Of a stretch of DNA of 64,000 nt, positions 9,715-48,126 are shown piece by piece. The stretch is from positions 30,000 through 93,999 of the forward strand of contig CALVSW010000004.1 of NCBI GenBank assembly GCA_944359625.1, in the 5' to 3' direction. A model generated the notes under the pieces. The model worked only from the letters and a program-made list of their open reading frames with translations. It ran no database searches and was not told where the DNA came from. The translations under genes were made by a program, and so were the position numbers. Source of the stretch: an uncultured Bacilli bacterium. GTDB taxonomy: Bacteria > Bacillota_I > Bacilli_A > RF39 > UBA660. Position 1 is the stretch's first letter; every line of letters begins with the position of its first letter.

Positions 9715-9721
9715 GTGTATT

Positions 9722-17107: not shown

Positions 17108-17145
17108 ATATTTATTTTGTTATAATCTAAATAGAGGTGAACAAA

Positions 17146-18213
17146 ATGGAAACAGTAAAAATTAATGAATTACCTATTAATTATAATATGGATAAAGAGT
17201 TATTACGCTTACTTGCAGATGCTAATGAAATATATGGTGAATATAAATCAAAATTAAAAAATAGTAAAATAAATTCTAAACTTTTTTTAGATTCTCTTAT
17301 TTTAAAAGAAAGTTTTAAATCTACTCAAATTGAAGGAACTCAAATTTCTCAGGATGATATATATTATTTAAAATATATGCCTAAAACTGACGAAAACTTA
17401 GAAATTCAAAATTTAAAAATGGTAATTGATTATGCTAAAAATTATTTAAAAGAAAATAATAAAATCAATTTAGAATTTATAAATAAAATTCATAAAATTC
17501 TATTAAATAGTGTTCGTGGTAATGAAAAAGAACCTGGTAAAATACGTAGTATTCAAAATTGGATTGGACCAAGAGGATGTACAATTGAGGAAGCTAGTTA
17601 TATTCCTCCATCACCAGAAAAAGTTCCTATTTTATTAGATAATTTATTTAAATACATGAATGATTTATATGCGGATCCCCTATTTATAAATATGGCTATT
17701 TCCCATTGTCAATTTGAATCAATTCATGCTTATAGAGATGGTAATGGAAGATTAGGGAGAGCTTTAATCCCAATCCAATTGGCAGCTTTAACAAATGAAG
17801 AACCTATTTTATTCTTATCTGAAGTTATAGAACTTTATAAACCAACTTATTATCGTTTATTAAACGAAAGCCGTAACGGAAATATATTAGGATTTATTAA
17901 ATTCTTTTTACAATGTATTATTGAACAATGTAATAGTTATGTAAATAAAATAAATCGTATTGAACAAATATATGAAAAGAATAACGAAAAAATAAAAATA
18001 TTAAAAAGTAGTGCTGTATATCAAATAATGCCTATTATTACTAAATTAGTAATTTTTACAAAAAAGGAGATAGAAGAAGAATCTAAGTTATCAAGGAATA
18101 CCGTTTCTAGAATTATTGATAAATTAGTAGAACTTAATATTTTAGTTCCTGATACTAATCATATAAAACTTGGTTATCGTTATCAAGAAATATATAACGT
18201 ATTTATTAAATAA
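17146..18213 (+). CDS. Fic-family protein (AMPylator type) with N-terminal inhibitory motif, i.e. class II Fic
   Basis: HAYRDGNGRLGRAL fits the Fic motif HxFx(D/E)GNGRxxR. Upstream STQIEG fits the [ST]xxxE[GN] inhibitory helix motif. Likely start ATG 17146 (METVKINEL) with AGAGGTG RBS; the ORF-track GTG at 17137 is less likely. Confidence 0.8.
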   Translation: METVKINELPINYNMDKELLRLLADANEIYGEYKSKLKNSKINSKLFLDSLILKESFKSTQIEGTQISQDDIYYLKYMPKTDENLEIQNLKMVIDYAKNYLKENNKINLEFINKIHKILLNSVRGNEKEPGKIRSIQNWIGPRGCTIEEASYIPPSPEKVPILLDNLFKYMNDLYADPLFINMAISHCQFESIHAYRDGNGRLGRALIPIQLAALTNEEPILFLSEVIELYKPTYYRLLNESRNGNILGFIKFFLQCIIEQCNSYVNKINRIEQIYEKNNEKIKILKSSAVYQIMPIITKLVIFTKKEIEEESKLSRNTVSRIIDKLVELNILVPDTNHIKLGYRYQEIYNVFIK

Positions 18214-33523: not shown

Positions 33524-36082
33524 TTAATAGTCATCATCACCAAAGAAATCATCAAAGAATTCATCATCAGATATTATATTATTATTAACAACAACAGAAT
33601 CAACATCAACATTAATCTTTGGTTTATCTTCTTTTTTGCTTTCAATAACCAAATTATCATTCGTTACTGGAGTAGTCTTTATTTCTGTTTTTGGTACTTC
33701 ATCTAGAACTTCGACATCCTCTGCATCTTTTTCTGAAGATAAATCATTATAACTTGGAAGCTCATAGTTGGTATCAATAGATACTTTTATTGGTTCACTC
33801 TTATTTATTTCTGGTTTTATAAGCTTAGGATTTTCTTTTGGAGTAACCTCTTTTTCCTTTATAATTTCAGGAATCTCTTCAGTAATCTTAGGTTCTTCCT
33901 CTACCTTCTTTTGTTCTGGTTGCTCAATAGGAATTTCTTTTTCAATAGGTTTTATGTCTTCCTTAGGTTTAGAATCTAATTTAGATGTATCTAATTTCAT
34001 AGTCATACCTAAGTAATCATCGATATTTGGCTTTTTAACACTATCTTCTAAATTCTTTAAAGCAGCTTCCGTCATGGCTTTACTATCAGGAATTTTATTA
34101 TTTAAATTTTCTTTTTGACGAGCTTCTTCAGCATCTAATTCCGCAATTTTTTTATCAATATCACGCATCATCGCATCTAAATCTATTTTATTACTTCCGC
34201 CAAAAGGATTGGAAGTTTCTGGTTTAGTTGGTGTACTTTGAAATGGATTAGATGTTGCAAATGGATTATTTGATGCAAAAGGATTAAATGGCATATCAAA
34301 AGGATTACCACCAAAGCCTGGATTTGAACCGAAAGGACTATTTCCAAAATTAGCCATACTTTTTTCTTTCTTCTTTTCATTAACAAAACCTTTGATATCA
34401 AATAAAGCTACAGGTTTAGCAGCTCTTTGTGGAAAAGATGCATCGCTTGCTTGATAGCCCCAATCGACCTTATCATTGAAAGGTAACTTTGTTTTAAATG
34501 GACTCTTTCGAATACGCATTAATATCGCTTCACCAAACTTTAATTTTTGTAAATCTGTTACCGTTACTAAAGGTGTAGAAGCTGTTTTATCTTTTTCTTT
34601 AGATTTTACTTCACCACACATTTTACTAATTTCTTCTAAAGCAGCAAGTTCGGTAGATATTAAATAAATTGTATTACCACAGTTACCACGAATTACTTCC
34701 GCTACTTCTTTACCATAAACATCATTTAATTGGGCAAAGTTTTGAATAATAAATGTAAAGCGCATTTGTCTACTACGGGCAGCAGTTACCATTGAATCAA
34801 CATCTTTTAATGGTGGCATGTTAGCAAACTCATCTAAAATGAAGTTAGTTCTAATTGGTAATTTACCACCATTTTCTTGGGCAACATCAATTAGTGTTTC
34901 ATAACATTGTTTAATAAAAATAGTAGCTAATGCATGATAAGTAGTTTTTTCATCATGAACAACTATAAATACAGCAGTTTTTTCACGGCCAATATCTAAG
35001 ATACTAAAATCACTATGACCTAACATCTCTGATAAATTTTCACGAGATGCAAATAAACGTATTTTTTGTCTAAAAGTTGAAACTATACCACCTTTAGTAT
35101 CACTTGGAGCATTAATTGTTCCTGATGCAAAAGTGTAGGCACTTGAAGATTCACCTTTTAATAAGAAATATTCTTTAGCATAGTTAGAAGCTCCTAATCT
35201 TTCTTCACCAATCGTAGCCATTAAACTAATAGAATTAATATTTATTTCTTCTTCTTTAGCATCTTGAAATAGTCCTAAAGCTAAACCAGAAAAGTAATCA
35301 GCTGCAGATTTTTCCCAGAATGGTTCGCCCTTATTATTAGCATCATACAAAATATTTAAAGCAACATCATCTAATAATTCAGTAGCTTTATCCATATTTC
35401 CCATCTTGTAATATTGATATGGTAAGGTCAAAGGATTCCAAGCATTACCTTTTAATGGATCACGAAAATTTAAAATAATTACTTTGTAGCCTAATTCTTT
35501 TAATTTATTAGCAGCAGCAACATATAACTCACCCTTAGGGTCAGTTATAATCATAGATTCACCCTTTTTTGCTAACAAATTAACCATCGGTTTAACTACA
35601 CAACGTGATTTACCAGAACCAGAAGAACCAATTACTAAAGTATGATATTCACCATTATCAACCCACATTTCATTATTTTTACCTGTACATAAAGGAACAC
35701 CAGCAGCATTTAATGTTGCATCAGTAGTAATTACTTTAGCGACATCTCTATCAGTTTTAATATCTTTATCTTTAGCCCAACTAGAATAGCCTTTTTCTTC
35801 TTTTTCTTTAACTATAATACCTAATCCTTTTTTTTCTCTTTCAAAAACATAAGAAGATACAGAAGAGAAAATCATAATTAGTGCTAGAAAAAATAAAAGT
35901 AACGTTATTGGTAAATAAACACCTGAAAAAGCAGGAATAGGATTTAAACCCCATAATCTTCCTTCAGCACCAAAATTAATAAAATTTAAAACACTGATTG
36001 CACATAAATATAATAAAAATAAGCAAAATATCACAAATATAATTAAATCTTTAGAAGTTATTCTAAATTTCATTAACAACAC
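33524..36082 (-). CDS. Type IV secretion coupling protein (VirD4/TraG/TcpA/PcfC-like ATPase)
   Basis: N-terminal TM helices, Walker A VIGSSGSGKSR, Walker B FILDEFANMP. Long low-complexity acidic/proline C-terminal tail. Confidence 0.8.
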   Translation of the reverse strand: MLLMKFRITSKDLIIFVIFCLFLLYLCAISVLNFINFGAEGRLWGLNPIPAFSGVYLPITLLLFFLALIMIFSSVSSYVFEREKKGLGIIVKEKEEKGYSSWAKDKDIKTDRDVAKVITTDATLNAAGVPLCTGKNNEMWVDNGEYHTLVIGSSGSGKSRCVVKPMVNLLAKKGESMIITDPKGELYVAAANKLKELGYKVIILNFRDPLKGNAWNPLTLPYQYYKMGNMDKATELLDDVALNILYDANNKGEPFWEKSAADYFSGLALGLFQDAKEEEININSISLMATIGEERLGASNYAKEYFLLKGESSSAYTFASGTINAPSDTKGGIVSTFRQKIRLFASRENLSEMLGHSDFSILDIGREKTAVFIVVHDEKTTYHALATIFIKQCYETLIDVAQENGGKLPIRTNFILDEFANMPPLKDVDSMVTAARSRQMRFTFIIQNFAQLNDVYGKEVAEVIRGNCGNTIYLISTELAALEEISKMCGEVKSKEKDKTASTPLVTVTDLQKLKFGEAILMRIRKSPFKTKLPFNDKVDWGYQASDASFPQRAAKPVALFDIKGFVNEKKKEKSMANFGNSPFGSNPGFGGNPFDMPFNPFASNNPFATSNPFQSTPTKPETSNPFGGSNKIDLDAMMRDIDKKIAELDAEEARQKENLNNKIPDSKAMTEAALKNLEDSVKKPNIDDYLGMTMKLDTSKLDSKPKEDIKPIEKEIPIEQPEQKKVEEEPKITEEIPEIIKEKEVTPKENPKLIKPEINKSEPIKVSIDTNYELPSYNDLSSEKDAEDVEVLDEVPKTEIKTTPVTNDNLVIESKKEDKPKINVDVDSVVVNNNIISDDEFFDDFFGDDDY

Positions 36083-36124
36083 CCAATTTCTATATTACAT
36101 TATACAATAACAAATAAATAATAT

Positions 36125-36859
36125 CTATGTATTTTTATTCTTTTTTTTCAATATAAGAATCATTAAAATTATATAAACTAAAAATCCTACAATTATCAAA
36201 ATGATATTTATAATACTATTATTTTCTTCAGTATTTTGACTATCTGGAATATCTTCATTATCAGGATTTTCCTCTTCTTCTTTATTTTTAGCAAGGGAAA
36301 TAAAAATATTTTTATTTAAATAATTATCACGACTAAATAACCATGTATACTCATTATTATTTACTAAATCAGCATTACTATTCGTAACAGCTAAATCAGT
36401 TTTAATCGTAATAATAACACTAGTTAAATCAGGAGCTAAATCAAAGTATTTAAGACCTTTACTAGTCGAAATAATTATATTATCATTATTATCTAAAAAA
36501 CTTTTAGTATTATTAGCAAATAACCATGTTGGTGTATTATTTAATTTTTCTAATTGATTATTATTATTTAAACTATACATATAACCAGTATCATTTTGTA
36601 ATAATAAGTTTTTAGCATAACAATCTTCTAGTTTTTCACATATAAGATTATTTAACTCAGTTAGTTCAGTTATTTCACGAGGATAATATTCGTTATAAGT
36701 ATTAGCAATATCTGTTATATTTCTAGTAGTAGTAACAAAATCATTAACGATTACTTCCTCATCAAAACTATCTTCAGTAATCGTAATGTTATAGTTAACA
36801 GTACAACCACTCATTATTAAACTAAATAATAATATTAAAATTAATTTAATTTTGTTCAT
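36125..36859 (-). CDS. T4SS-associated lipoprotein with C-terminal TM anchor
   Basis: Probable start MNKIKLILILLFSLIMSGC (lipobox). Hydrophobic C-terminus IINIILIIVGFLVYIILMILIL. Lies between the hydrolase and coupling-protein genes. Confidence 0.5.
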   Translation of the reverse strand: MNKIKLILILLFSLIMSGCTVNYNITITEDSFDEEVIVNDFVTTTRNITDIANTYNEYYPREITELTELNNLICEKLEDCYAKNLLLQNDTGYMYSLNNNNQLEKLNNTPTWLFANNTKSFLDNNDNIIISTSKGLKYFDLAPDLTSVIITIKTDLAVTNSNADLVNNNEYTWLFSRDNYLNKNIFISLAKNKEEEENPDNEDIPDSQNTEENNSIINIILIIVGFLVYIILMILILKKKNKNT

Positions 36860-36864
36860 TTTTA

Positions 36865-39237
36865 TCACCCACACAATCCTGGTAAATATGTTAATGGATC
36901 TACTCGACTTCCATTTACAAACACTTCAAAATGCAAATGGTTTCCAGTAGCAGCACCAGTTTGACCTACATAACCGATTAAAGTGCCCGCAGTAACTGTA
37001 GAACCAATTTGTAAATCTGAAGGCTTTATCATATGAGCATAGAGAGTTTCAATCCCATTATTTCCAGCTATTCGAACATAATACCCATAACCATCAGAAT
37101 CATTACCATTTATCGTAACTGTACCATCATGTGCAGCATATATTGGTGTATTAGCTGGTCTAGCTATGTCGATGCCATTATGATTTTTTTGAACACCACT
37201 TATTGGATGAACACGATTGCCATACATCGAAGAACAATTACCCGTAGTTTCTAATGGATACATTAATCCATACGAATTAACTTCCCCATTTAAATTATAA
37301 TTCTTTAAACTTGAAGATAATACTGCATTATCATAATAGAAATTTAATATTTCATTATAAAGTTTTCCTTGTACGGTTGACATATAATAAGCACCATACT
37401 GACTCATTCCACGGCCATGACCACCATCACCATCAGTTCCACAAGGATGTTCTAAATACGATGTTCCACTCCATTTTGGAACATTTTCATAAGCCCAAGC
37501 AATTGGTATAGCTTGATGTTTTTGGGCTAAATAATAGTTAGTGCTATCTTTAGATTCATAGCAAAAAGCATCATATTCAGTTGAAACTAAATTACCGGCA
37601 CCATCAGTCATTATTTGACCAGTAGTTTGCGATACAGCATCAATAATTTGTTGATTAGTTGTTGGACGGAATGCTTGCGTATTAGTACTACTTGTAATAT
37701 AGCATACACCATCAGTATTTTGCGATCTTGTAAATAAATACGTACGTGCTGCTACAGAGAAAGCTTTAAAAGTTTCAGTATCTTGAAATCCTCCTACTTC
37801 ATGGCTAATAACACCAGCTACATAATCATCTAAAGTATAAGTTCCCATGTAATCACCAGATGTAACAGTAACATTATCACAGCCATTAACATCTACATAT
37901 GATAGTTCTGGAGAAGGCTGATACATATCACAAATTGGAAATATTTCAAATGGCTCTAATTCTAATTTTTCTACTTTAAATAATTTTTTAATAGTTTCAT
38001 CATAGTTAGTTCCCTGATTCAAAGCACTTAAGTCTAATTCTATTTTAGGAGCATAACCGATAATTATCTCACTTTTACCTAAAGATACAGCATTAGTAAT
38101 ATTATCTTGACTATCATCTGTTGATTCAGTATTATTTTCAGGAATATTTAATAAAGTATATTTATTGGTATCTTTTAATGTACAAGTACTTTCACCACTA
38201 TTAATAGACGAATTAATTAATAAATCAGAATTTACTACCACTCCTAAAGCATGATAATCTTCAGCATTACTAGTATATGAGCCAAAATAATAATTAACAG
38301 CACCTGCTAAATATTCATCAATTGTATAAGTACCTGCAGAGGGACCATCTGGTATAATAACGGTATTACAAGTAGGATTATTAACACAGTTAACATCAGC
38401 ATCTTCATTATAATCATAAATGTTATTTGAAACTATTCCAGATATTATAAAAATTATAATTAATAAAGCAAGTATTATTACTATAAATAACATAATAAAT
38501 GGGATTAAGGGAGCAATAACAGAAAGTGTTAACTTAAATGAAGTAGATCTTCCTAATAATATATTTTTTGTAAATTTTTTATTTTCATTTGTAGGTTCAT
38601 CATTATTATCAGATTTTTCTTTTTGAGATTCATTATTACTTTTAGAATTTTTATCTTTTAAAGGTTCTGAACTATCATCTTGTTTATCATCAAAACTTTC
38701 TTCTTCTGGTAAAGAATCTATAGTTTGATTAAACTTATTTTGTATATTTTTGCCATAATTCTTTATTTTATTTCTAGTTTTTCCTACCAAAGAAGCAGCT
38801 GTTCCTAACATTCCTAATTTGCTTTTAGGATTTAAAATGTTAGATAATTTTTCTTTATTTTCTTTTGTTTCTTCACTTACTTTTGGTGAACTATTTTTGC
38901 TTTCTTTTTCGTCTTCATTTACTTTTGGTATAGTGTCTTTATTTTCTTTTTCTAAAGATTTTTTTTGTGATTTATTAAGTGCTTTCCCACCATTTTCAAG
39001 CATTTTATCAACAGCTGGATTATCTAAAGTTTTTTTTACAGCCTGTCCTGCTGCAGCTCCAGCAGGTCCTCCAATTGCACCACCAATTACTGGAGCAGCA
39101 TTTTTTATTACTTTACGCCCAAGCTTTGATTGCAAACCTTTACTAGCTAAATTGCCAACCATATTTTTATTATAGGAAATCGGTTGCTTTGGATTTTGCT
39201 GAGGTTCTGTAGAAGAGTTCTTTTTTTCTTCGTCCAT
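36865..39237 (-). CDS. Bifunctional cell-wall hydrolase: SpoIID/LytB-like lytic transglycosylase domain plus C-terminal M23 (LytM) peptidase; functional VirB1 analogue
   Basis: GGHGRGMSQYGAYYMS is the SpoIID-family signature. C-terminus HNGIDIA...GNHLHFEV is the M23 HxxxD/HxH motif. Long charged cytoplasmic N-tail and one TM, as in PrgK/TcpG-type T4SS hydrolases. Confidence 0.75.
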   Translation of the reverse strand: MDEEKKNSSTEPQQNPKQPISYNKNMVGNLASKGLQSKLGRKVIKNAAPVIGGAIGGPAGAAAGQAVKKTLDNPAVDKMLENGGKALNKSQKKSLEKENKDTIPKVNEDEKESKNSSPKVSEETKENKEKLSNILNPKSKLGMLGTAASLVGKTRNKIKNYGKNIQNKFNQTIDSLPEEESFDDKQDDSSEPLKDKNSKSNNESQKEKSDNNDEPTNENKKFTKNILLGRSTSFKLTLSVIAPLIPFIMLFIVIILALLIIIFIISGIVSNNIYDYNEDADVNCVNNPTCNTVIIPDGPSAGTYTIDEYLAGAVNYYFGSYTSNAEDYHALGVVVNSDLLINSSINSGESTCTLKDTNKYTLLNIPENNTESTDDSQDNITNAVSLGKSEIIIGYAPKIELDLSALNQGTNYDETIKKLFKVEKLELEPFEIFPICDMYQPSPELSYVDVNGCDNVTVTSGDYMGTYTLDDYVAGVISHEVGGFQDTETFKAFSVAARTYLFTRSQNTDGVCYITSSTNTQAFRPTTNQQIIDAVSQTTGQIMTDGAGNLVSTEYDAFCYESKDSTNYYLAQKHQAIPIAWAYENVPKWSGTSYLEHPCGTDGDGGHGRGMSQYGAYYMSTVQGKLYNEILNFYYDNAVLSSSLKNYNLNGEVNSYGLMYPLETTGNCSSMYGNRVHPISGVQKNHNGIDIARPANTPIYAAHDGTVTINGNDSDGYGYYVRIAGNNGIETLYAHMIKPSDLQIGSTVTAGTLIGYVGQTGAATGNHLHFEVFVNGSRVDPLTYLPGLCG

Positions 39238-39283
39238 AAAAACACCACCATCACTATGTAAATTTTATCATAAAATAGTGGTT

Positions 39284-39312
39284 AAAAAAAGTCTAAACAT
39301 TAATTTAGACTT
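39284..39312 (-). terminator. Internal hairpin/terminator between the VirB4 and hydrolase genes
   Basis: Minus strand reads AAGTCTAAA-ttaatg-TTTAGACTT followed by TTTTTT. Confidence 0.45.
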
Positions 39313-39315
39313 ATT

Positions 39316-41103
39316 CTAAAATCCACCACCAGTTCCAAAAGAATCTAACTCTTCTTGAGTACATATTACATAAATTTGCATTCTTCTAGAACCACAAATA
39401 AATAATCCTTGGCCTTGATTATAATACTTAATATTATTCATTTCAGCTTCGGTTAAATCAATCAAACTTGACAAATCATCTACAGCTTGCTTTTTTAATC
39501 CCATTACCAAATAATAAGAGGCATTATCAAATATTGCTTTACCATGCATAATTAAATTTGGAGAAGCAAAGTCAGTAGGTTGTTGAGTAATAATAATTGT
39601 CCCACTATTATATTTACGAGATCTTCTTTGAATTTGAGCTAAAAATTCAGCACCTAATTCATTATGAGAGGATAATAAAACATGAGCTTCATCAACACTC
39701 AACACTGAAGTTACTGTTTTATCCAAACATAAACCCCAAGCATATTTTAAGATATTGAAAAATATTGCATTACGAATATTTTCATCGCTATTCATTAATT
39801 CACGAATATTAAAAACCACAAAATCACTTTGAATATTTAAAGTTGTATGACCATTAAAGTAATAACGAAGTTCCCTAGTAAATGGTCTAATTTTAAGTTC
39901 TAATCTTTCTAAAATATCTTTTTCCCTAGTTTTTTCAGGAATAGAAAGTAATCTACCTCTAATTGTAGCATATACATCATCAAATGTTGGATAATCTTGA
40001 CTAGTAAGGCGTGAAAAATCAGTATCATAATCTATTTTAAATCTTTTATAAGTATCTTGAGCAATTTCACTAAACATTGTTAAAACATCTTCTTCAATAT
40101 CTGGTGAATAATATTTCAAGAAAGCTTTTAAAGATTGTAAAGCTCTTGTTAAGACCGTATAACCTAATCCTTGAGCTAAATCTTCTTCATCAGCATCAGC
40201 AACGACTTCAAGGGGATTTATCATCCCAAATTCGCCACCTTTTCCTAAATCTAGAAAATCACCATCTAAAAATTTAGCCATTTCTTCGAGTTCACCTTCA
40301 GGATCAATAGCAATTACCTTATAACCATTACGAATATGAGATCTTAAAAGTAATTTGCTTGCTGTTGATTTACCACTACCAGATGTACCTAAAATTATCA
40401 TATTAGCATTGTTTCGATTATGTTCTTTTTTAATTTGATAAAGAAATTGATTAAATAAAACAACTCCACCAGAATAATCAACACCTAATAAAGTAGAATT
40501 TCCAATATCTTTAACACTATCAAATATAAATGGATACATAGCCGCAATTGTAGGAGAAGGAATTGGCGTACCAATTCTTTCTTCTAAATCTTGTTTAGGA
40601 AATATTGGTAAAATAGATTTTAAAACTTTTTCTTGTTCAAACATTAAAGGTATACCACGCATTCCCATAGCGTCTAAGAAACTCAAAAGATTAACTTTTT
40701 TACTTTCCAAATCTTCCTTAGAATCCGCAACTACCATCAAATGTAATTGAAAATCAAATATTCTTGATTGTGTTGCTGCTAACATCTGGACAAATTGTTC
40801 TAAAGATTCATAATCTTGTCTAATTCTTTCTTGAATAGTACGATCATTTTCATTTTGATATCTTTGTTTCAAATCAGCAATTTCTTTATTAATCATCTTA
40901 CTCATTGTACTAAATTCAATTGGAATATGCTTAGCAACTACTTTAACACCATTAATATTACTTAAATCTGATAAATAACCCGGAGATATATATTTAGGAT
41001 AACTTATAATCGTATAAATTGTACAATATTTACCACTCATAATAAAATCAGTAATATTATACTTCATTCCTTTAGGAGCTAATTCACTTTTTAAATTCAA
41101 CAT
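39316..41103 (-). CDS. VirB4-family T4SS ATPase (TcpF/PrgJ/Orf16-like)
   Basis: Walker A ILGTSGSGKST, Walker B SVDEAH, about 600 aa. This is the Gram-positive VirB4 architecture. Confidence 0.85.
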   Translation of the reverse strand: MLNLKSELAPKGMKYNITDFIMSGKYCTIYTIISYPKYISPGYLSDLSNINGVKVVAKHIPIEFSTMSKMINKEIADLKQRYQNENDRTIQERIRQDYESLEQFVQMLAATQSRIFDFQLHLMVVADSKEDLESKKVNLLSFLDAMGMRGIPLMFEQEKVLKSILPIFPKQDLEERIGTPIPSPTIAAMYPFIFDSVKDIGNSTLLGVDYSGGVVLFNQFLYQIKKEHNRNNANMIILGTSGSGKSTASKLLLRSHIRNGYKVIAIDPEGELEEMAKFLDGDFLDLGKGGEFGMINPLEVVADADEEDLAQGLGYTVLTRALQSLKAFLKYYSPDIEEDVLTMFSEIAQDTYKRFKIDYDTDFSRLTSQDYPTFDDVYATIRGRLLSIPEKTREKDILERLELKIRPFTRELRYYFNGHTTLNIQSDFVVFNIRELMNSDENIRNAIFFNILKYAWGLCLDKTVTSVLSVDEAHVLLSSHNELGAEFLAQIQRRSRKYNSGTIIITQQPTDFASPNLIMHGKAIFDNASYYLVMGLKKQAVDDLSSLIDLTEAEMNNIKYYNQGQGLFICGSRRMQIYVICTQEELDSFGTGGGF

Positions 41104-41675
41104 TAAATCATCACCGTCCCAAAATTAGTACTAACGCCACCATTTAAGAAATTATCTAATATCATTCTTAAATCACCATTAGAGACTTGCATTGAATTTA
41201 ATCCACAATTTGCTAAGCCCGTAATTAATATTCTCAATCTTTTTTGAATTATATCGATTCTTTTTTCTTTAAAAAGGATAAAGTATTCGGTATCAACAAC
41301 ATTGTACTCAGCACCCATAAAAGCATTTGCTTTATTAATATCTTGCATTATTAATTTGCGAGTAATATTACTATTTGATTTTTGATATAAAACTTGTAAT
41401 TGCGCTAAATAAGGAGCAATATCTACTGGGCGATCCGCTATTATTAGCCAAAATTCAAAATCAATAGTATTATAAAAATTTCGTAATTGAGTAATAATAT
41501 TATTTTGAGAACCAGTGTCCATTATGAATATATTGCGTGGCTGAATTTTTACACCACAAACAAAATTACCATCCTCTAACTGAATCATCCCATTAACAAT
41601 ATTTTTAACAGGTAACCAGTCCTCACAATACTTATAATTATTTTCATTCTTCTCTATCTTTGCCGTAGACATCTT
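41103..41675 (-). CDS. Hypothetical T4SS operon protein (~190 aa)
   Basis: ORF between the VirB3-like and VirB4 genes. Likely start at internal Met (MSTAKIEKNEN); the longer ORF-track version overlaps the upstream gene by 76 nt. Confidence 0.4.
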   Translation of the reverse strand, partial: KMSTAKIEKNENNYKYCEDWLPVKNIVNGMIQLEDGNFVCGVKIQPRNIFIMDTGSQNNIITQLRNFYNTIDFEFWLIIADRPVDIAPYLAQLQVLYQKSNSNITRKLIMQDINKANAFMGAEYNVVDTEYFILFKEKRIDIIQKRLRILITGLANCGLNSMQVSNGDLRMILDNFLNGGVSTNFGTVMI

Positions 41676-41973
41676 TAACACACCAGCCTTTCCAAATATA
41701 TTCTCTAGGATTTTTTGCACTATAATAATTTAATACGTTACCAATAAATGTCATAACATTATGATAATTAGGTACTGGCATTACTAAAAATAATGAAATT
41801 AATAAAGGTAAACATAATAAAATTATTTGATTAATATTATTAGCATTAATCATTATTAATAATAAAAGGGTAACACCTGCACCAGTACCAAATACAGCCA
41901 AATCAATTGGAGTAAAAAAGCCAAATATTAACTTAGACTTTTTACTATTTGCCGGGATTAAAAAGTTTCGCAT
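41644..41973 (-). CDS. VirB3/TcpE/PrgI-like small two-TM T4SS protein
   Basis: 109 aa, two hydrophobic helices, immediately upstream of VirB4, which is the canonical position. Confidence 0.55.
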   Translation of the reverse strand: MRNFLIPANSKKSKLIFGFFTPIDLAVFGTGAGVTLLLLIMINANNINQIILLCLPLLISLFLVMPVPNYHNVMTFIGNVLNYYSAKNPREYIWKGWCVKDVYGKDREE

Positions 41974-41988
41974 AAACTCCTCCTTATT

Positions 41989-44181
41989 CTACTTTTTATT
42001 AGCATCTTTTTTAACTTGTTCAAAACGTAATGATGTTGCCATCTTACCAGCACTAGAGCTAATTTTCTTCGCAGCAGTGCTAACTACATCTGATCCATCA
42101 AAGCCTTGACCATTTTCAATCATTTTAACCAAACTATCAATTCCTTTATCGCTAACAAGATCTTCTATTTGAGCAAAATCACTACCACTCATAGTTTTTT
42201 GTAAAGCATAGGCAACTAAACTACGATTTGCCGCAATTGACTGAGCATAATTTTCTAAATTATGTTTCATTGCTACATCACCTTTAGCAACAAGATCTTT
42301 AATTACTTCAGCACGTTTTGCAGATTTTCTAGAATCCCATTCTTTTTGTAAATTTTTAATTCTATCTTGCTTAGCATCAATAGTATTTTTACTCATTTGA
42401 TCTAACTCAAGTTTTAATTTATTTTCTTCATCTAATAATGGATTTAAACGAGCAGCTTTTTCAGAATCACTCATTGTTACGGAATTACGAATATTATCCA
42501 TTTGAGATTGTAAATTTTTCAATTTGCTATTCGCATTATTAATATCATCTTGTGAATAAGTACGAGATTCTTTAATTCTAGATATTTCGCCTTCATAAGT
42601 AGCATTTAACGCTTTTATGCCATCGTTTTTATCAGCAGCATCATTAATAGCATCCATATATTTTTTTATCTTATCCAATATATCAGCCTTAGCATTTTGA
42701 CTACTCTTCCCAGATCCATGTGCCCATTCATCAATTGAAGTTCCAATATCGCCAACATGACCTTTAACTACACCAGACAAATTACCGCCATGAGTATTAC
42801 GATAGTATTCTCTTTTAATTCTTGCTGAAGCAACATCGTTTGCTGCTCTACTAGTATTACTTGCTAAATCGTGATAATTTTTAGAGCCTTTATTAGCGGT
42901 AAAACCACGAGCTAAACCACTTCCAGCACCTGCTAAAGCACTTAAACCTTTAGAAAATTTGCTTCCTTCTTTATTAAGTGCATTTTGAACAGCTCCGGTA
43001 GTAGCAGCACCCATTGCACCCATTGCTTGAAACATTCCAGATTCAGCAAGTTTGTCTTTAACGCCTAATTTAAACCCTTTACTATCTAAACCTGTAACTT
43101 CTGATACAAATTTTGGTGCTGTTTTAATAAACCAGAATAAACCAACTATTGTAGCAGCTTTAACTAATAGAAAAACAACTCCACCAATTTCACCACAATA
43201 TACACCACCAGTGCCAAAGAAAGTATCATAGACACTATCAAGGGTACGCATAATGTAAGCAACGAATACTACAACAAATAAACGCGTAAATACTTCAATA
43301 AAACAGCTAATTGTCTTTTTTAGCCAATTAGAAAATACTTTCTTTTGACCTGGAATAATTATCGTTAAAATTGGTAATGGCGCTATTACTTGTAGGTACG
43401 ATAGTTTAACTGCTCGTAAAGCCATATCTAAACATAATGAAGCTAAAACATAAACACAAAATCCTCCAGCAATTGTCGATATTATAAATACATACCCAAT
43501 TTCTTCATCTACTACTGCATCTGAAAATTTTCTTAAAGCAGAAAATGGAGCACCAGCCTCAATTTCAGCATAAGCTTGTTCTAAAGTCTTACAATCTGCA
43601 CCATCACAATCATTTTCATATATGTGAGAAGCAGCACCTCCAGTTTGCGAAATATCAACAGGTTCACCGTTTTCGTCAAGAGGATAGAAAAATGATTTAA
43701 AAAGCAAAGTTGCCATTTGAGCACCAATTTGATTTGGTTCCTCACTATTAACATCAAAGCCGTCGCTATACGAATTTCCTAATATCAACTTAGGAATAAC
43801 ATTACCGCACAAAATAGCATGTTGGACATCGTACATTACATTAAAAGCAGATGGAACAATCGCAATACCAATAATTGCTAATGCAATATTTGGTACAACC
43901 TTACCTAAAGAATGCTCTTTATTATTACTATCAGGATTAATTATAGCTAATAATAAAGCATAAGCAACTAAAAATAATGCAACTACGCCAATTATAATAT
44001 AAATTCTTTGAGATAAGTCATTTAAATCTTGATTACTAAATATTCTAATTTGACTTATAGCTAAAAAAGTTTGATATGCTAAATTCACTAACCAATAAAC
44101 AAATGTATCTATAAATAAAAATATATGTGTCAATACTCTTTCAATTAAATCACCTATTGGTCCTAATATTGCCTGGGCCAT
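41989..44181 (-). CDS. VirB6/TrbL-like polytopic T4SS channel protein with C-terminal coiled-coil/low-complexity extension
   Basis: Six or more TM helices in the N-terminal 400 aa, then a long hydrophilic coiled-coil region. Position relative to VirB3/VirB4 matches PrgH/TcpH/Orf15. Confidence 0.6.
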   Translation of the reverse strand: MAQAILGPIGDLIERVLTHIFLFIDTFVYWLVNLAYQTFLAISQIRIFSNQDLNDLSQRIYIIIGVVALFLVAYALLLAIINPDSNNKEHSLGKVVPNIALAIIGIAIVPSAFNVMYDVQHAILCGNVIPKLILGNSYSDGFDVNSEEPNQIGAQMATLLFKSFFYPLDENGEPVDISQTGGAASHIYENDCDGADCKTLEQAYAEIEAGAPFSALRKFSDAVVDEEIGYVFIISTIAGGFCVYVLASLCLDMALRAVKLSYLQVIAPLPILTIIIPGQKKVFSNWLKKTISCFIEVFTRLFVVVFVAYIMRTLDSVYDTFFGTGGVYCGEIGGVVFLLVKAATIVGLFWFIKTAPKFVSEVTGLDSKGFKLGVKDKLAESGMFQAMGAMGAATTGAVQNALNKEGSKFSKGLSALAGAGSGLARGFTANKGSKNYHDLASNTSRAANDVASARIKREYYRNTHGGNLSGVVKGHVGDIGTSIDEWAHGSGKSSQNAKADILDKIKKYMDAINDAADKNDGIKALNATYEGEISRIKESRTYSQDDINNANSKLKNLQSQMDNIRNSVTMSDSEKAARLNPLLDEENKLKLELDQMSKNTIDAKQDRIKNLQKEWDSRKSAKRAEVIKDLVAKGDVAMKHNLENYAQSIAANRSLVAYALQKTMSGSDFAQIEDLVSDKGIDSLVKMIENGQGFDGSDVVSTAAKKISSSAGKMATSLRFEQVKKDANKK

Positions 44182-44192
44182 GACTATCCCTC

Positions 44193-45107
44193 CTAACTAA
44201 TACCACATACTCCATAAATTCCAACTAGTTTAAAAGTCCAATCTAGCAAACTTGGTATAATAAATAACATTATTGCATAAATTAACCTTTTTAAAGTTTT
44301 AACTCCTAATTTAGTTAATTCATCATTTTTACCATTTGCTAATACTTTTATTAAATCAACAATTGTCATCACAACAACTAAAATTGGCCCTGCAAACTTA
44401 ATTATTTCCAATAATTTAGCTAAATAATAGCCTAGATATTCTGGGTCATCATAGTCACCTAAAACGTAGTCACATGTTAATGAGCCATTATTATTAGACG
44501 AATTATTACTTTCATCATCGCCAGCCTCGTTCCACCAGTAATCCTTATCTTCTGTTGTTACATGGACAATTTTTGTACCATTACCAGCGCCAACTGTAAC
44601 ATTTGCAGAACAATTTGGTGCTATCGCATGAAGCGTACAAGAATAAGTACCAGCAATTGAAGAAGCCGTAGAAGAATTTGCTGAAACACAACTTGGATTA
44701 TCAGAAACACATGTTGCTGAACCACTTTGATAAGAAGTACTATCTTCTAATTTCATAGTAATATCAATTTCTTCTGAAGGAGTAACAGGTTCTGCTTGAC
44801 TAGGATCACCAACTGTAACGTTAATAACCCTTGAACTTGTACCACCACCAATTGTTACCGTAGAATTACAATTATCACCAATAGCAACAAAAGTGCAATG
44901 ATAAAGTCCAGATTGATTCGTATAACTTTCACTAGCAGAAACACACATAGGGTTAGAAGATTTACAACCAGATAAATTAGAATTAATAATGTGGTTCTGT
45001 CCTTTAGACATTGTCATTTCTTCTGCATACGTCAAATAGTGACAAGAAAAAATGGCTACAAAAATAAATAAAAAAGAAAAGATAACATGTTTAATATTCT
45101 TTTTCAT
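44193..45107 (-). CDS. Secreted Cys-rich two-repeat ectodomain fused to a VirB2/TrbC-like C-terminal membrane hairpin
   Basis: Signal peptide (MKKNIKHVIFSFLFIFVAIFS). Two ~60-aa Cys-rich repeats (...NPMCVSASESYTNQSGLYHCT... / ...NPSCVSANSSTASSIAGTYSCT...). C-terminal FAGPILVVVMTIVDLIKVLANGK...IYAIMLFIIPSLL hairpin resembles TrbC/VirB2 pilins. Confidence 0.5.
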   Translation of the reverse strand: MKKNIKHVIFSFLFIFVAIFSCHYLTYAEEMTMSKGQNHIINSNLSGCKSSNPMCVSASESYTNQSGLYHCTFVAIGDNCNSTVTIGGGTSSRVINVTVGDPSQAEPVTPSEEIDITMKLEDSTSYQSGSATCVSDNPSCVSANSSTASSIAGTYSCTLHAIAPNCSANVTVGAGNGTKIVHVTTEDKDYWWNEAGDDESNNSSNNNGSLTCDYVLGDYDDPEYLGYYLAKLLEIIKFAGPILVVVMTIVDLIKVLANGKNDELTKLGVKTLKRLIYAIMLFIIPSLLDWTFKLVGIYGVCGIS

Positions 45108-45168
45108 TAAGCCACCTCTAACAAAAAAATTATAACATAAAAAAAGTAATATTTGCAAAAAATATTAC

Positions 45169-45495
45169 CTATAAATACAAATATGACTTACAGTCAATCC
45201 ATCCTCTAGCATTAGTATCACCAGTTTCAGCAACGGTCTCCATAATTAAGCCAACGATAGATGGAATAAAGAATATCAATACAGCAGCAAGCGCACGGAA
45301 AGCAAAACTTTTAATATTTTTAGTAATTTCTTCTGGTTTTCCAGCTACAACACTTTTACCAACATCTAACATACCAAATAAAATTAATAAAATAGGAATA
45401 ATAATTTTAACAGCCGTTATAAGCATTCCTAACAAATTTAAAAATGGCTTTAACTCACCACATACAGTAGCTGGTGATAAACTCATTAATAACAT
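45169..45495 (-). CDS. VirB2/TrbC-like pilin-family small membrane protein
   Basis: Helix, loop and helix arrangement ITAVKIIIPILLILFGMLDVGKSVVAGKPEE ... AAVLIFFIPSIVGLI, as in Firmicute TrbC/VirB2-family proteins. Confidence 0.45.
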   Translation of the reverse strand: MLLMSLSPATVCGELKPFLNLLGMLITAVKIIIPILLILFGMLDVGKSVVAGKPEEITKNIKSFAFRALAAVLIFFIPSIVGLIMETVAETGDTNARGWIDCKSYLYL

Positions 45496-45558
45496 ATAGC
45501 AAACATCTCCTTCATCTAGCTTTATTTTAATATAAAATAATTAATATTGTCAAGAAAA

Positions 45559-46614
45559 TTACTCATCCTTTACAATGCCAAATATCTTTCCTACAGGTTT
45601 TTTGATACCACCAACCGGTTCTTGACGATCAAAACCCAACTTATATAATAAATCATTTAAAATTGGATTTTGATCTTTTTTGTCATCTAAAGGTGGAATA
45701 GATTCAAACACTTTACAACGAGATTCATATTCAAATTCAGAAACATCCTTAGAACTTAATAAACATTTATTTAAAACTATCTTATATTTTTTCATCTTAG
45801 TTAATACCGTACGATCAGTTCTAATTAATTTATTTAATTTAATAGTAGTTGGTTCAATTAAATGAATCACTTCTTTTATAGAAGCAACTTTAGGAGAAGA
45901 ATTAATGTCAACTAATATTATTTCATAATTACTATTAGGATTTTTAATAATTGAATCAACCTCACCAGTTGAGCAAGTACGTAAATCAGGATCATTAAAA
46001 TAAACAAAATCATTTTTATCGACTTCTAGGGCTAAAACTTTATAATTTCTTTCTAATTGTTTTTTTAACATATAAACCAAGGTAGTAGCCCCAGCATGCT
46101 CCGTAACATTTTTAAAAGCTATAACTCGAGAACCCATAAACACTTTATTAATTGAATCATTAAAAAAGTTAGAATTTACATTACCAACGTTTAAATTAAT
46201 ATTTAAATTATTTTGATTATTAGTACCATTATCGCCAATAATATGATATTGAGCTACATCTTTATAAGTATTAGGATTATTAATTAAGTATTCAATTGAA
46301 TCAATATTACGTGTAAAATTATATATTCCCATCGATACTAATCCAGATAAATAACTAGGTGAATTAACCTCAGGCGAATCATCTAAAAGAACAATAACTT
46401 TATTCATATCAAGTCCTGAGGCTAATTTTTGAATTGTAGCAATATTTTTATAACCGATAACAGCCGTAATATCTAAAATCATTTTATTAAAAAAGAAGTT
46501 TTCAAAATTAGCAATTATTACTTCCGGCTCATATTCACCACGAACATTTTTAATTATATCGATATTTAAATTAGTTAACATTTCACTATATCGATTAGAA
46601 ATTATAACATTCAT
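45559..46614 (-). CDS. ParA/MinD-fold protein with degenerate Walker A (TadZ/CpaE-like pseudo-ATPase?) and N-terminal receiver-like domain
   Basis: RVIAFKNVTEHAGATTLVYML occupies the deviant Walker A position (consensus KGGVGKTT) but lacks the Lys. Overall size and architecture resemble TadZ. Confidence 0.4.
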   Translation of the reverse strand: MNVIISNRYSEMLTNLNIDIIKNVRGEYEPEVIIANFENFFFNKMILDITAVIGYKNIATIQKLASGLDMNKVIVLLDDSPEVNSPSYLSGLVSMGIYNFTRNIDSIEYLINNPNTYKDVAQYHIIGDNGTNNQNNLNINLNVGNVNSNFFNDSINKVFMGSRVIAFKNVTEHAGATTLVYMLKKQLERNYKVLALEVDKNDFVYFNDPDLRTCSTGEVDSIIKNPNSNYEIILVDINSSPKVASIKEVIHLIEPTTIKLNKLIRTDRTVLTKMKKYKIVLNKCLLSSKDVSEFEYESRCKVFESIPPLDDKKDQNPILNDLLYKLGFDRQEPVGGIKKPVGKIFGIVKDE

Positions 46615-46626
46615 ATATCCGTCCTC

Positions 46627-47127
46627 CTAAACACCAAATAAGTCTTGGTCATATGTTGCGTCTAATTCAGTTGTACTTCCTGTTGCTCTAAAGGTAAATA
46701 ATTGCCCTAATACAGGTAAATCTAAATTAAAAAACAAAACAACATTATAATAACTTTTAACTTTAGTACCTGTAAAAGTTACTTTTTGAACACAATAATA
46801 ATATTTCTTATTATTATTGTTATCAACATATTCAAAAGCACTTGGAGTAAAATCATCTAAGCGTACTGCCCCATAATAGCCTGCAGTACATGCACCTTTT
46901 GAATGATATCCAGAAGCTAATAAATAATTATTAACTATACCTATCCCTTTTAAACCACCACTAGTTAATCCCTCATATTTTTCAATTATACTTACTACTT
47001 CATTTTTAGACTTAAAAGCCTTAGCATAATTAGTCATAATAGCTAAGTAGGAAGCAAATATTAGAATAAATGCAATTACTAGTTGAAATATCCAAGTCGT
47101 ACCTATTGTTTCTCTCATACTGAACAA
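46627..47127 (-). CDS. Prepilin/pseudopilin-like protein (166 aa) with conserved [KR]E[AST]xG N-terminus
   Basis: MFSMRETIGTTWIFQLVIAFILIFASYLAI: charged leader, Gly, then about 20 hydrophobic residues. Paralogue of 47115-47591. Confidence 0.45.
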   Translation of the reverse strand: MFSMRETIGTTWIFQLVIAFILIFASYLAIMTNYAKAFKSKNEVVSIIEKYEGLTSGGLKGIGIVNNYLLASGYHSKGACTAGYYGAVRLDDFTPSAFEYVDNNNNKKYYYCVQKVTFTGTKVKSYYNVVLFFNLDLPVLGQLFTFRATGSTTELDATYDQDLFGV

Positions 47128-47591
47128 CTCCCCCCATTAACAGGATAATAAAGAGTTTTAGTCGTTCCACTTAAACTAAAATTAAATACATTATTTATAA
47201 TTGGTAAGTCTAAAGAGAAAAAGACTTTAACCTTATAATAACTAGCATTAGGAAATTGTTTATAAGGATCATTTAAATTAACATTTATATTTACACATTT
47301 AATACAATAATTAGCTTTAGTTTGACTACGACCACCAGATAAAGTATATCCTATACCATCTTCTTCATCACAGCTTCCTAATGAACGATAACTAACTTCA
47401 TTTAAATGCCCTGCTATTTCATCTATTGTAGAACCATCAACACCATTATGTCTTTGAATAATATTTACTAATTCATTTTTTACGTTATAAGCCTTAGTTT
47501 GATTAACTGAAATACATAAATAACCAGAAAAAAGAATTATTAAAGTAACAAATATCGTAGTTATACTTAATGCTCCAAACGACTCTTTCAT
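47115..47591 (-). CDS. Prepilin/pseudopilin-like protein (158 aa) with conserved [KR]E[AST]xG N-terminus
   Basis: MKESFGALSITTIFVTLIILFSGYLCI: same architecture as the neighbouring paralogue. Confidence 0.45.
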   Translation of the reverse strand: MKESFGALSITTIFVTLIILFSGYLCISVNQTKAYNVKNELVNIIQRHNGVDGSTIDEIAGHLNEVSYRSLGSCDEEDGIGYTLSGGRSQTKANYCIKCVNINVNLNDPYKQFPNASYYKVKVFFSLDLPIINNVFNFSLSGTTKTLYYPVNGGSCSV

Positions 47592-47597
47592 ACTATA

Positions 47598-47831
47598 CTA
47601 ACCTTTCCACGGACACATAATAGTATCATTATTATCCCCATAGTGACAAACAACCATCTTGCATCCACTTGAATCTGTACACTTTTCACACCAAGCATCA
47701 CTACACTTACTATTTTGATCCATATTCTTTTTTAGCATTGGCCAAATAACCATGTAGAAAAAAGCCACTAGGATACTAACAGCTATAACAACAATAACAG
47801 TCGAATTTAATTCCCCAGTAGCTTCTTTCAT
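47598..47831 (-). CDS. Small Cys-rich pilin-like protein (77 aa)
   Basis: MKEATGELNSTVIVVIAVSILVAFFYMVIWP followed by a 6-Cys C-terminal domain. N-terminus near-identical to the 83-aa paralogue. Confidence 0.5.
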   Translation of the reverse strand: MKEATGELNSTVIVVIAVSILVAFFYMVIWPMLKKNMDQNSKCSDAWCEKCTDSSGCKMVVCHYGDNNDTIMCPWKG

Positions 47832-47874
47832 CTTTTATCTTCTTTCTATATAATTATATCTTTTTTCTATATAA

Positions 47875-48126
47875 TTACTTGTTGCTTACTCCACTTTGAT
47901 TTGGGCAAGTTATTTTTTCAGTTGAAATAGTTCCATCGTCTTCATAGTAACTACATTGACATGTATCACCATCACATGTGCAATTAACTGAATTAGCACA
48001 TCTAGTACTTTGCTGAATACTTCCTTGAATTGCTGGCCATACAAAAGCATAGAAGAATGCACCAATAGCAGCAATAGCAACTACTGTAACTACAGTCATA
48101 TTTAATTCACCTGTTGCTTCTTTCAT
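47875..48126 (-). CDS. Small Cys-rich pilin-like protein (83 aa)
   Basis: MKEATGELNMTVVTVVAIAAIGAFFYAFVWP followed by a 6-Cys C-terminal domain. Confidence 0.5.
   Translation of the reverse strand: MKEATGELNMTVVTVVAIAAIGAFFYAFVWPAIQGSIQQSTRCANSVNCTCDGDTCQCSYYEDDGTISTEKITCPNQSGVSNK

Follow-up and report, generated by a model that had tools for sequence, protein, structure and literature searches.

The subject of this study is a 351-amino-acid (aa) protein encoded in a 64,000-nucleotide stretch of DNA from an uncultured Bacilli bacterium (contig CALVSW010000004.1 of assembly GCA_944359625.1, positions 30,000 to 93,999; hereafter the window), where its gene lies between a block of pilin-like genes and a type IV secretion module. 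TadZ and CpaE are ParA/MinD-fold organisers of Tad (type IVc) pilus machines and consist of an atypical receiver domain and an atypical ParA/MinD ATPase domain. Our results indicate that the 351-aa protein is probably a TadZ/CpaE-like, non-catalytic organiser of a Tad-like (type IVc) pilus machine. Four lines of evidence carry this assignment: the predicted fold of its C-terminal domain, a strongly conserved P-loop that lacks lysines at the catalytic positions, a profile similarity with CpaE, and the presence of pilin-like genes directly upstream of its homologues in nearly all related loci.

The 351-aa protein and its family

A protein search with the 351-aa query gave 5,738 homologous clusters (90% identity), nearly all of which are unnamed or 'hypothetical', and a profile search of 1.84 billion representatives gave 551 homologous clusters at 50% identity. 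Scanning of species-representative genomes revealed relatives in at least 567 species-level genomes, all of them metagenome-assembled genomes carrying the labels Bacilli, 'Tenericutes', Candidatus Coprovivens, or Candidatus Ventrenecus. A chance open reading frame (ORF) at 45559-46614 was ruled out by this conservation. The Shine-Dalgarno sequence of the gene overlaps the TAG stop codon of the preceding pilin-like gene (46627..47127), indicating that the two genes are translationally coupled. The positions of the gene, its parts, and its neighbours are listed in Table 1.

Table 1 Positions of the 351-aa gene, its predicted domains and motifs, and neighbouring features in the window.
Feature	Position	Strand	Evidence or remark
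Gene for 351-aa TadZ/CpaE-like protein (probable)	45559..46614 (including stop)	minus	ORF; 5,738 homologous clusters; AlphaFold2 pLDDT 86
Shine-Dalgarno AGGAGGA 5' of the ATG	46622..46628	minus	direct sequence read
N-terminal domain, residues 1-127	46234..46614	minus	DSSP of model: five alternating strand/helix units
Asn-rich disordered linker, residues 128-159	46138..46233	minus	pLDDT <50; gapped, length-variable in family alignment
C-terminal MinD/ParA-fold domain, residues 160-341	45592..46137	minus	domain model; Foldseek
C-terminal tail GKIFGIVKDE, residues 342-351	45562..45591	minus	pLDDT <50; short hydrophobic/basic motif
Non-canonical P-loop K168-N-V-T-E-H-A-G-A-T-T178	46081..46113	minus	ORF, both models, hhalign
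Walker A'/switch I-like motif E197-V-D-K-N-D202	46009..46026	minus	E197 100%, D202 97%
Walker B-like strand I232-I-L-V-D-I-N238	45901..45921	minus	D236 100%, N238 98%
Switch II-like motif L252-I-E-P-T-T-I-K-L-N-K262	45829..45861	minus	E254 99%, P255 95%, N261 94%
L281-N-K283	45766..45774	minus	N282 98%; aligned with ILNR motif of 3ea0 and CpaE
Pilin-like (minor pilin/pseudopilin-like) gene, 166 aa	46627..47127	minus	N-terminus M-R-E-x-I-G and hydrophobic helix
Pilin-like gene, 158 aa, paralogue of 166-aa gene	47115..47591	minus	sequence features
Small pilin-like gene, 77 aa	47598..47831	minus	N-terminus MKEATGELN, invariant in ~80 orthologues
Small pilin-like gene, 83 aa	47875..48126	minus	N-terminus MKEATGELN
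Promoter-like site TTGACA-18-TAAAAT	45524..45553	minus	11/12 matches, region's best on minus strand
Type IV secretion module	33524..45495	minus	Pfam, NCBIfam matches

Predicted structure of the 351-aa protein

AlphaFold2 modelling of the full-length protein from a 63-sequence alignment gave a mean predicted local distance difference test score (pLDDT) of 86, and a model of the C-terminal domain only (C-domain; residues 160-341) gave a pLDDT of 92 and a predicted template modelling score of 0.88. Foldseek searches of PDB with the full-length and C-domain models returned MinD/ParA-type (SIMIBI-class) matches only, all with a probability of 1.00, which bore out the ParA/MinD fold that a first-pass annotation, made without database searches, had read in the C-domain. 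The C-domain matched HypB, ParA, ParF, MinD, FlhG/FleN, BcsQ, BioD, and MeaB, with E values of ca. 1e-4 to 1e-5 and template modelling scores of ca. 0.45-0.57. The best PDB match of the isolated C-domain was 3ea0_B, a Chlorobium 'ParA family ATPase' whose P-loop, SAKGGDGGS (KGGDGGS), is of the CpaE/TadZ type. When an annotated Azospirillum CpaE was used as the query, 3ea0 was again the best ATPase-domain match in PDB (E 2e-13), with MinD behind it. By Foldseek, the 351-aa protein thus has the C-terminal atypical ATPase domain of ParA/MinD fold that TadZ and CpaE possess.

The Foldseek alignment with IcmF, which has a flavodoxin-like B12 domain followed by a G-domain, covered 410 columns with the full-length model (E 2e-5) and 231 columns with the C-domain alone (E 1.8e-3). 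Because the alignment was longer with the full-length model, the N-terminal domain (N-domain) is suggested to be flavodoxin-like; the first-pass description of this domain as receiver-like is no more than plausible. N7, G26, D48, T50, and N99 of the N-domain are conserved at 97-100% across the family. D48, conserved at 100%, ends the third strand, and T50, N99, and N7 (97-99%) are located on the same face. The C-terminal tail, which is preceded by a variable spacer, follows the consensus K-[LI]-F-G-[IL]-[VF]-[KR] in 136 of 181 full-length homologues. We take this tail to be reminiscent of the membrane-targeting tail of MinD/FlhG, and it is possibly a membrane- or partner-binding peptide.

P-loop and other motifs of the nucleotide site

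In both AlphaFold2 models, residues 166-179 (AFKNVTEHAGATTL, nt 46078-46119) belong to the first strand of the C-domain (163-169), the following loop (170-175), and a helix (176-187); AFKNV forms the first strand, TEHAG the loop, and ATTLVYMLKKQLE the start of the first helix. This strand-loop-helix geometry places AFKNVTEHAGATTL at the Walker A position. The register was obtained independently of the models by hhalign, which set RVIAFKNVTEHAGATTL opposite KVIAVTGARGGVGASTL of CpaE. In this register, T171 occupies the position of the signature lysine and A176 that of the canonical GK[ST] lysine, E172-H173 stand in place of the Gly-Gly pair, and T177 corresponds to the Mg-binding Ser/Thr. An intact canonical P-loop masked by misalignment, which the first-pass annotation had named as an outcome that would make this a regular ParA/partition ATPase, was ruled out because the models and hhalign share the register and GK[ST] was found in no homologue.

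Residue frequencies were calculated from the 230-231 homologues covering this region. Position 171 is T in 87% and S in 13% of them, and position 176 is A in 79%, S in 18%, and T in 3%; K was found at neither position, and consequently the KGGxxGK[ST] motif of ParA/Soj with both lysines is absent. In contrast to these replacements, the P-loop glycine G175 (100%) and the Mg-binding T177 (97%) are retained. Position 168 is K or R in 94% of the homologues, and position 172 is acidic (E or D) in 72%. The length of the P-loop in the models is normal, yet both lysines and three of the four glycines are replaced.

The Walker A' and Walker B motifs, whose examination the first-pass annotation had proposed, are recognisable and conserved (E197 and D236 in all homologues). 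The former aligns to VDISL of 3ea0 and VDLDL of CpaE, and the latter to YIIVDFG of 3ea0. The switch II-like motif aligns to IVTTPSLQSLR of 3ea0, with EPTT opposite TTPS, and L281-N-K283 would, from its alignment, contact the base. The near-invariance of the P-loop and the site motifs in the homologues indicates that the nucleotide site is under strong purifying selection and is not decaying. The first-pass annotation had reported a 'crippled' Walker A from which the signature lysine is gone. That lysine is indeed missing and the loop is non-canonical, but the canonical lysine is gone too, and the notion of decay does not hold since the loop and the other site motifs are 95-100% conserved.

The published consensus of TadZ is K/RGGxGxS/T, in which the canonical lysine is absent (bioRxiv 10.64898/2026.07.08.737194). 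CpaE sequences read RGGVGAS, VGGAGAS, TGGVGAS, or KGGDGGS at the P-loop. Loss of the canonical lysine is therefore a normal trait of TadZ/CpaE, to which the 351-aa family adds the loss of the Gly-Gly pair and of K/R.

Similarity with CpaE

Comparison of the 351-aa family with a 35-sequence CpaE alignment by hhalign gave P = 7e-4 (5e-4 to 7e-4) over 178 co-linear columns, which run from the latter half of the N-domain through the linker into the P-loop/Walker A' region. As controls with the same query, the VirB4 family (P = 0.018) and the T2SSE ATPase family (P = 0.033) gave short alignments of the P-loop only, and six unrelated families gave P = 0.15-0.51. The corresponding hhalign values were 0.001-0.007 for single CpaE sequences, 0.043 for 3ea0, 0.043 for Soj, and 0.37 for MinD. 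CpaE is thus the best match by more than 10-fold, though the signal is weak. We regard the 351-aa protein as a diverged counterpart of TadZ/CpaE in function and, probably, as very distantly homologous to it.

Linkage with pilin-like genes and distribution of the motor genes

The pilin-like neighbours mentioned in the first-pass annotation were confirmed as four genes at 46627-48126 that encode short-leader, N-terminally hydrophobic proteins. The upstream side of that neighbourhood therefore stands, whereas the genes immediately downstream encode VirB2-like type IV secretion system (T4SS) pilins of the secretion module and are not Tad components. On the minus strand, the order is the 83-aa, 77-aa, 158-aa, and 166-aa pilin-like genes, the 351-aa gene, a 63-bp gap, and the secretion module. 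The orthologue of the 83-aa gene in one related locus (L001) showed a weak match to the archaeal Pilin_N family of Pfam (E 0.1). An N-terminus reading MKEATGELN.T is common to both small proteins and invariant across ca. 150 orthologues, the ~160-aa pair starts with M-R-E-x-I-G-G-T-W, and the DUF5411 proteins of related loci start with MKESYWGYW. These N-termini consist of a very short leader, Gly, and a hydrophobic helix, and are class III (prepilin)-like without the usual Glu at +5.

We then compared 84 loci from related genomes, for which the denominators were 72, 56, 52, or 44 depending on the neighbour. The four pilin-like genes were directly upstream of the 351-aa homologue in 71 of 72 loci. 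A CpaF/VirB11-type ATPase was encoded within 10 kb upstream in 43 of 56 loci, in 42 of them together with both membrane proteins, and a CpaB-like gene and a DUF5411 gene were each found in 40 of 56. VirB4 was encoded within 10 kb downstream in 34 of 52 loci. Among the 44 loci that were fully flanked, 22 had both the ATPase and VirB4, 11 the ATPase only, 7 VirB4 only, and 4 neither; in 15 of these 44, the pilin block and the 351-aa homologue were present and VirB4 was not within 10 kb. The pilin block is thus the tightest partner of the 351-aa gene, the motor set is next, and the secretion module is frequent but dispensable. Together with the match to 3ea0 and the profile score against CpaE, this linkage supports the connection with pilus assembly and the TadZ/CpaE-like reading that the first-pass annotation had put forward.

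The usual gene order in the relatives is a CpaB-like gene, a CpaF-like ATPase gene, two genes for membrane proteins, the pilin-like genes, and the 351-aa homologue. The upstream ATPase matched PF00437 (E 1.5e-25) and the VirB11 and TadA-family models of NCBIfam (~1e-30), and the CpaB-like gene product matched TIGR03177 at E 2.6e-8, which is below the curated cutoff. DUF5411 has been noted before in predicted CpaF-containing pilus-like operons of Clostridia (PMC9523054). Most relatives therefore carry CpaF-like ATPase, CpaB-like, and pilin-like genes, as a tad-type locus would, and CpaF is absent in the window.

The ATPase set is absent within 10 kb in the window and its closest relatives (at least 68% identity to the 351-aa protein). 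In the clade of the window, a half-cluster containing a CpaF-family ATPase (P0333) is located downstream of ftsZ (L089/L090, 1338-11119). It encodes a 1,448-aa protein, a DUF5411 protein, 260-aa and 259-aa proteins, the CpaF-family ATPase, and 300-aa and 262-aa membrane proteins. P0333 and a 68%-identical homologue of the 351-aa protein (P0035) probably share one contig of 1,256,952 bp. The presence of the CpaF half-cluster at a second locus shows that the pilus operon is split, not lost, in the related genomes checked; a split operon is likely in the window's own organism as well. A separate gene for an N_methyl-type pilin lies ca. 6 kb beyond the ftsZ-linked half-cluster.

Directly upstream of the pilin block in the window, at 48200-50079 on the minus strand, are genes for a calcineurin-like metallophosphoesterase (247 aa) and a 381-aa membrane protein. 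This pair occupies the place that the ATPase set has in most relatives and, among the 84 loci, recurs in L005 only, which is from a 96%-identical genome. Among plasmid-encoded proteins, those most closely related to the CpaF-like ATPase are 'CpaF/VirB11 family' ATPases of Bacillus, Listeria, and Enterococcus plasmids, including those of B. anthracis, B. thuringiensis, and B. subtilis natto. In the Bacillus halotolerans plasmid NZ_CP128115.1 (L085, 5627-9147), a thioester adhesin gene precedes the ATPase gene, after which come two genes for membrane proteins of ~250 aa and several for Flp-like proteins of 47-65 aa, forming a pilus-like sub-module within a conjugation-type region. No 351-aa homologue was found in this conjugative-plasmid locus of similar gene layout.

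Proposed role of the 351-aa protein

As a TadZ/CpaE-like organiser, the 351-aa protein would hydrolyse little or no ATP. The conserved pocket (T171, G175, T177, E197, D202, D236, E254, and N282) would still bind a ligand, most likely a nucleotide and perhaps without turning it over; alternatively, it may keep the loop rigid in a form that favours dimerisation. Xu et al. reportedly found in 2012 that E. rectale TadZ binds ATP despite the loss of its canonical lysine. The dimer would dock at the membrane through the N-domain face carrying N7, D48, T50, and N99, perhaps with the help of the KxFGIVK tail, and there recruit or position the CpaF-like motor and the platform proteins that polymerise the MKEATGELN pilins. 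Since the motor genes are located outside the window, the partner of the protein would have to come from another locus.

A number of results weigh against this assignment. Some concern recognition by sequence. Scans of the 351-aa protein with Pfam and NCBIfam matched no model, including the TadZ_N, AAA_31, and CbiA profiles that define membership of TadZ/CpaE. Searching 63 homologues against Pfam at E <= 10 gave only sporadic weak matches (AAA_31 in 4 of 63 with E >= 0.008, CbiA in 2 of 63) and no usable model. Sequence-profile searches of PDB with two alignments returned chance matches to serine hydroxymethyltransferase alone. The hhalign probability against CpaE was only 26-30%, and the N-domain showed no significant hhalign similarity (E 0.2-0.7) to CpaE N-domains or CheY/Spo0F. 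The TadZ motif K/RGGxGxS/T is absent: T-E-H-A-G-A-T-T shares only its G-x-[ST] end, and the Gly-Gly pair and K/R are missing family-wide. The acidic residue at position 172 inside the P-loop argues against the binding of a triphosphate. As for structure, the Eubacterium rectale TadZ structure 3FKQ was outside the top 50 Foldseek matches. Other points concern the locus. When the two membrane proteins were compared with annotated TadB/C (T2SS-F family) by hhalign, one matched weakly (E 0.004) and the other not at all. The loci examined showed no prepilin peptidase, and tblastn of the pilus-motor genes of L001 against the window detected no CpaF gene. The 351-aa gene comes last, after the pseudopilin-like genes, whereas in the proteobacterial loci examined its counterpart directly precedes the ATPase gene.

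Rhizobium proteins annotated as 'pilus assembly protein CpaE' likewise have no Pfam match, and escape from Pfam alone therefore does not exclude kinship with CpaE. Because the K/RGGxGxS/T motif and the profile matches that define TadZ are both lacking, the 351-aa protein is not filed under TadZ; we describe it and its homologues as a distinct TadZ-like family.

Alternative roles

One alternative, which we consider unlikely, is that the 351-aa protein serves the secretion module as an adaptor that couples the pilus to the channel instead of organising pilus assembly. The model for this role would be VirC1, a ParA-type protein with a canonical Walker A that delivers substrate to a T4SS and functions with a relaxosome. 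Such a role would suit a gene placed directly between pilin-like genes and VirB2-like, VirB6, VirB4, and VirD4 genes, followed by VirB4 in 34 of 52 loci, and kept beside the secretion module in the window's clade while the CpaF set is elsewhere. A ParA fold next to VirB4/VirD4-type genes and a possible recruiting role are likewise shared with VirC1-type proteins. Unlike the situation of VirC1, however, the window yielded no relaxase or transfer origin that could be recruited. The gene is most tightly linked to the pilin-like genes, which are present in 71 of 72 loci, whereas VirB4 is missing within 10 kb in 15 of the 44 loci that were fully flanked. The gene is also translationally coupled to a pilin-like gene, and the 63-bp gap with the best promoter-like site separates it from the secretion module.

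About as doubtful is the idea of the protein as a physical hub between two machines that normally stand apart, the Tad-like pilus and the chromosomal T4SS channel, relaxase-less in the window. The combined apparatus would serve uncultured gut Bacilli in taking up or exchanging DNA or in cell contact, and the pocket would have acquired a new task, either dimerisation without nucleotide or the binding of a ligand that is not ATP.

The conservation of the pocket can also be read in the opposite direction, as that of a working nucleotide-dependent switch, namely an unconventional NTPase or a tight binder of ATP or GTP with a MinD/FlhG-like cycle, perhaps operating through K168 or R163. The near-total conservation of T177, E197, D202, D236, E254, and N282, the K or R at position 168 in 94% of homologues, and the retained length of the P-loop would fit such a switch. 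Against this, both lysines and three of the four glycines are replaced, position 172 is mostly acidic, and the sequence-profile searches of PDB found no solved relative with such a loop. We attach no greater likelihood to a switch than to the adaptor.

Even less probable is a signalling protein whose N-domain, acting as a receiver that is phosphorylated or senses a ligand, controls the activity of pilus or secretion genes, the C-domain being only a scaffold. The invariant D48 is at the place of the receiver phospho-acceptor, at the end of the third strand, with T50, N99, and N7 on the same face; however, the acidic pair after the first strand and the lysine after the fifth strand are missing (N7 and N99, respectively). 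Moreover, there were no Pfam matches to Response_reg or TadZ_N, the hhalign comparison with receivers was not significant, and no kinase gene was found nearby.

Finally, a decayed ParA partition ATPase left by an integrated plasmid or conjugative element, which the first-pass annotation had offered as its own alternative and to which the fold, the conjugation-type neighbours, and the slightly raised GC content at 33-48 kb could point, was rejected as highly improbable. The family is preserved at full length in more than 5,700 clusters and at least 567 species genomes, and its 95-100% conserved motifs reflect purifying selection. The linkage to pilin-like genes is constant, no ParB-like gene is among the annotated neighbours, and the protein carries an additional N-domain. 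Housekeeping genes lie on both sides, and no integrase, relaxase, or replication gene was found among the window ORFs searched.

Comparison with known ParA/MinD-fold proteins

The TadZ/CpaE-like organiser that we favour shares with TadZ/CpaE (PDB 3FKQ, 3ea0, and 4n0p) the order of an alpha/beta N-domain, a linker, and a MinD/ParA-fold domain. Both lack the canonical Walker A lysine, with the loop ending in G-A-[ST]-T in the 351-aa family and G-A-S-T in CpaE, and in most relatives the type of locus is also shared (CpaB-like, CpaF-like ATPase, two membrane proteins, and pilin-like genes). The 351-aa family differs from TadZ/CpaE in having no significant sequence or hidden Markov model match with them and in the replacement of Gly-Gly and K/R by T-[ED]-[HG]-A-G. 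Its C-domain is also shorter (ca. 180 aa, compared with ca. 210-260 aa in 3ea0, CpaE, and MinD), and the Asn-rich linker and the C-terminal KxFGIVK tail are features unlike those of TadZ/CpaE. The host differs as well: the 351-aa family occurs in single-membrane gut Bacilli, in which a type IV secretion module usually adjoins the cluster.

MinD, FlhG (FleN), ParA-Soj, and ParF have the same overall fold, and their Walker A', Walker B, and switch II-like motifs are recognisable in the 351-aa protein. They carry KGGxGK[ST] and no extra N-domain, whereas the 351-aa protein lacks KGGxGK[ST] and has an N-domain. Unlike the genes for MinD, ParA, and FlhG, the 351-aa gene has no MinC/MinE, ParB, or flagellar genes around it, and the hhalign values for Soj and MinD were worse than for CpaE. 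Assignment to MinD/FlhG is not supported, with the Walker A absent and no min or flagellar genes among the window ORFs searched with Pfam and NCBIfam. BcsQ, a cellulose secretion subunit (PDB 6yay), matches the fold and follows the same logic of a ParA-like assembly or localisation factor for an envelope machine. It belongs to an unrelated system, however, and was crystallised with ADP and ATP according to the entry titles, and there is no cellulose synthase context here.

Placement beside TadZ gives a testable role to a large conserved family whose members are nearly all unnamed or 'hypothetical', and points to a widespread Tad-like pilus module in uncultured gut Bacilli that has been missed by standard profiles. 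A P-loop without lysines or Gly-Gly that is under strong selection is a natural experiment on the ParA/MinD fold without ATP hydrolysis. The frequent linkage with a T4SS and the lack of a relaxase in the window hint at a machine for DNA exchange, DNA uptake, or cell contact in this prevalent, uncultured gut lineage. The fold and the role are unsurprising given the context; the noteworthy features are the size of the family, the doubly lysine-less P-loop, and the composite pilus-plus-secretion locus.

Secretion module and the rest of the window

Following the 351-aa gene, the secretion module encodes two T4SS_pilin-like proteins, a VirB6-like protein, a TcpE-like protein, a TraC-like protein, VirB4, an M23/SpoIID hydrolase, a 249-aa protein without assignment, and a VirD4-type coupling protein. 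It looks complete and Gram-positive-type, and is chromosomal, between housekeeping genes. It is probably transcribed as a unit of its own, one that often accompanies the pilus module. The promoter-like site in Table 1 is in the 63-bp gap between the 351-aa gene and the first T4SS_pilin gene, which is where synteny of the pilus and secretion modules breaks in other genomes, and promoter-like sites overall are no more numerous than in shuffled sequence. The ORFs searched across the 64 kb included no relaxase, integrase, or replication gene, and no transfer origin was found in the window. A secretion module without a relaxase within the window recalls the relaxase-less chromosomal type IV secretion systems described in Patescibacteria (PMC12102498).

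The window has a GC content of ca. 23%, and the region at 33-48 kb is slightly higher than its flanks. The cluster is flanked by housekeeping genes, namely those for MutL, MiaA, MurF, Ddl, SpoVA, and ScpAB on one side and those for an SDR protein, a GH3 hydrolase, and LytR on the other. At 8149-12748 on the plus strand, a 1,008-aa ORF without a Pfam match comes after the gene for a 521-aa sortase-domain protein; the interior of this ORF (10001-12000) has a GC content of 13.7%, the minimum of the window. Fic/DOC-domain proteins are encoded at 608-1585 (minus strand) and 17137-18213 (plus strand), and one of the two is a fusion with a RhuM-family region. Other large ORFs without a Pfam match are located at 52219-53571 (minus strand, 450 aa), 56751-59405 (plus strand, 884 aa), and 59486-62215 (plus strand, 909 aa), and the product of the 450-aa ORF has a hydrophobic segment at its N-terminus.

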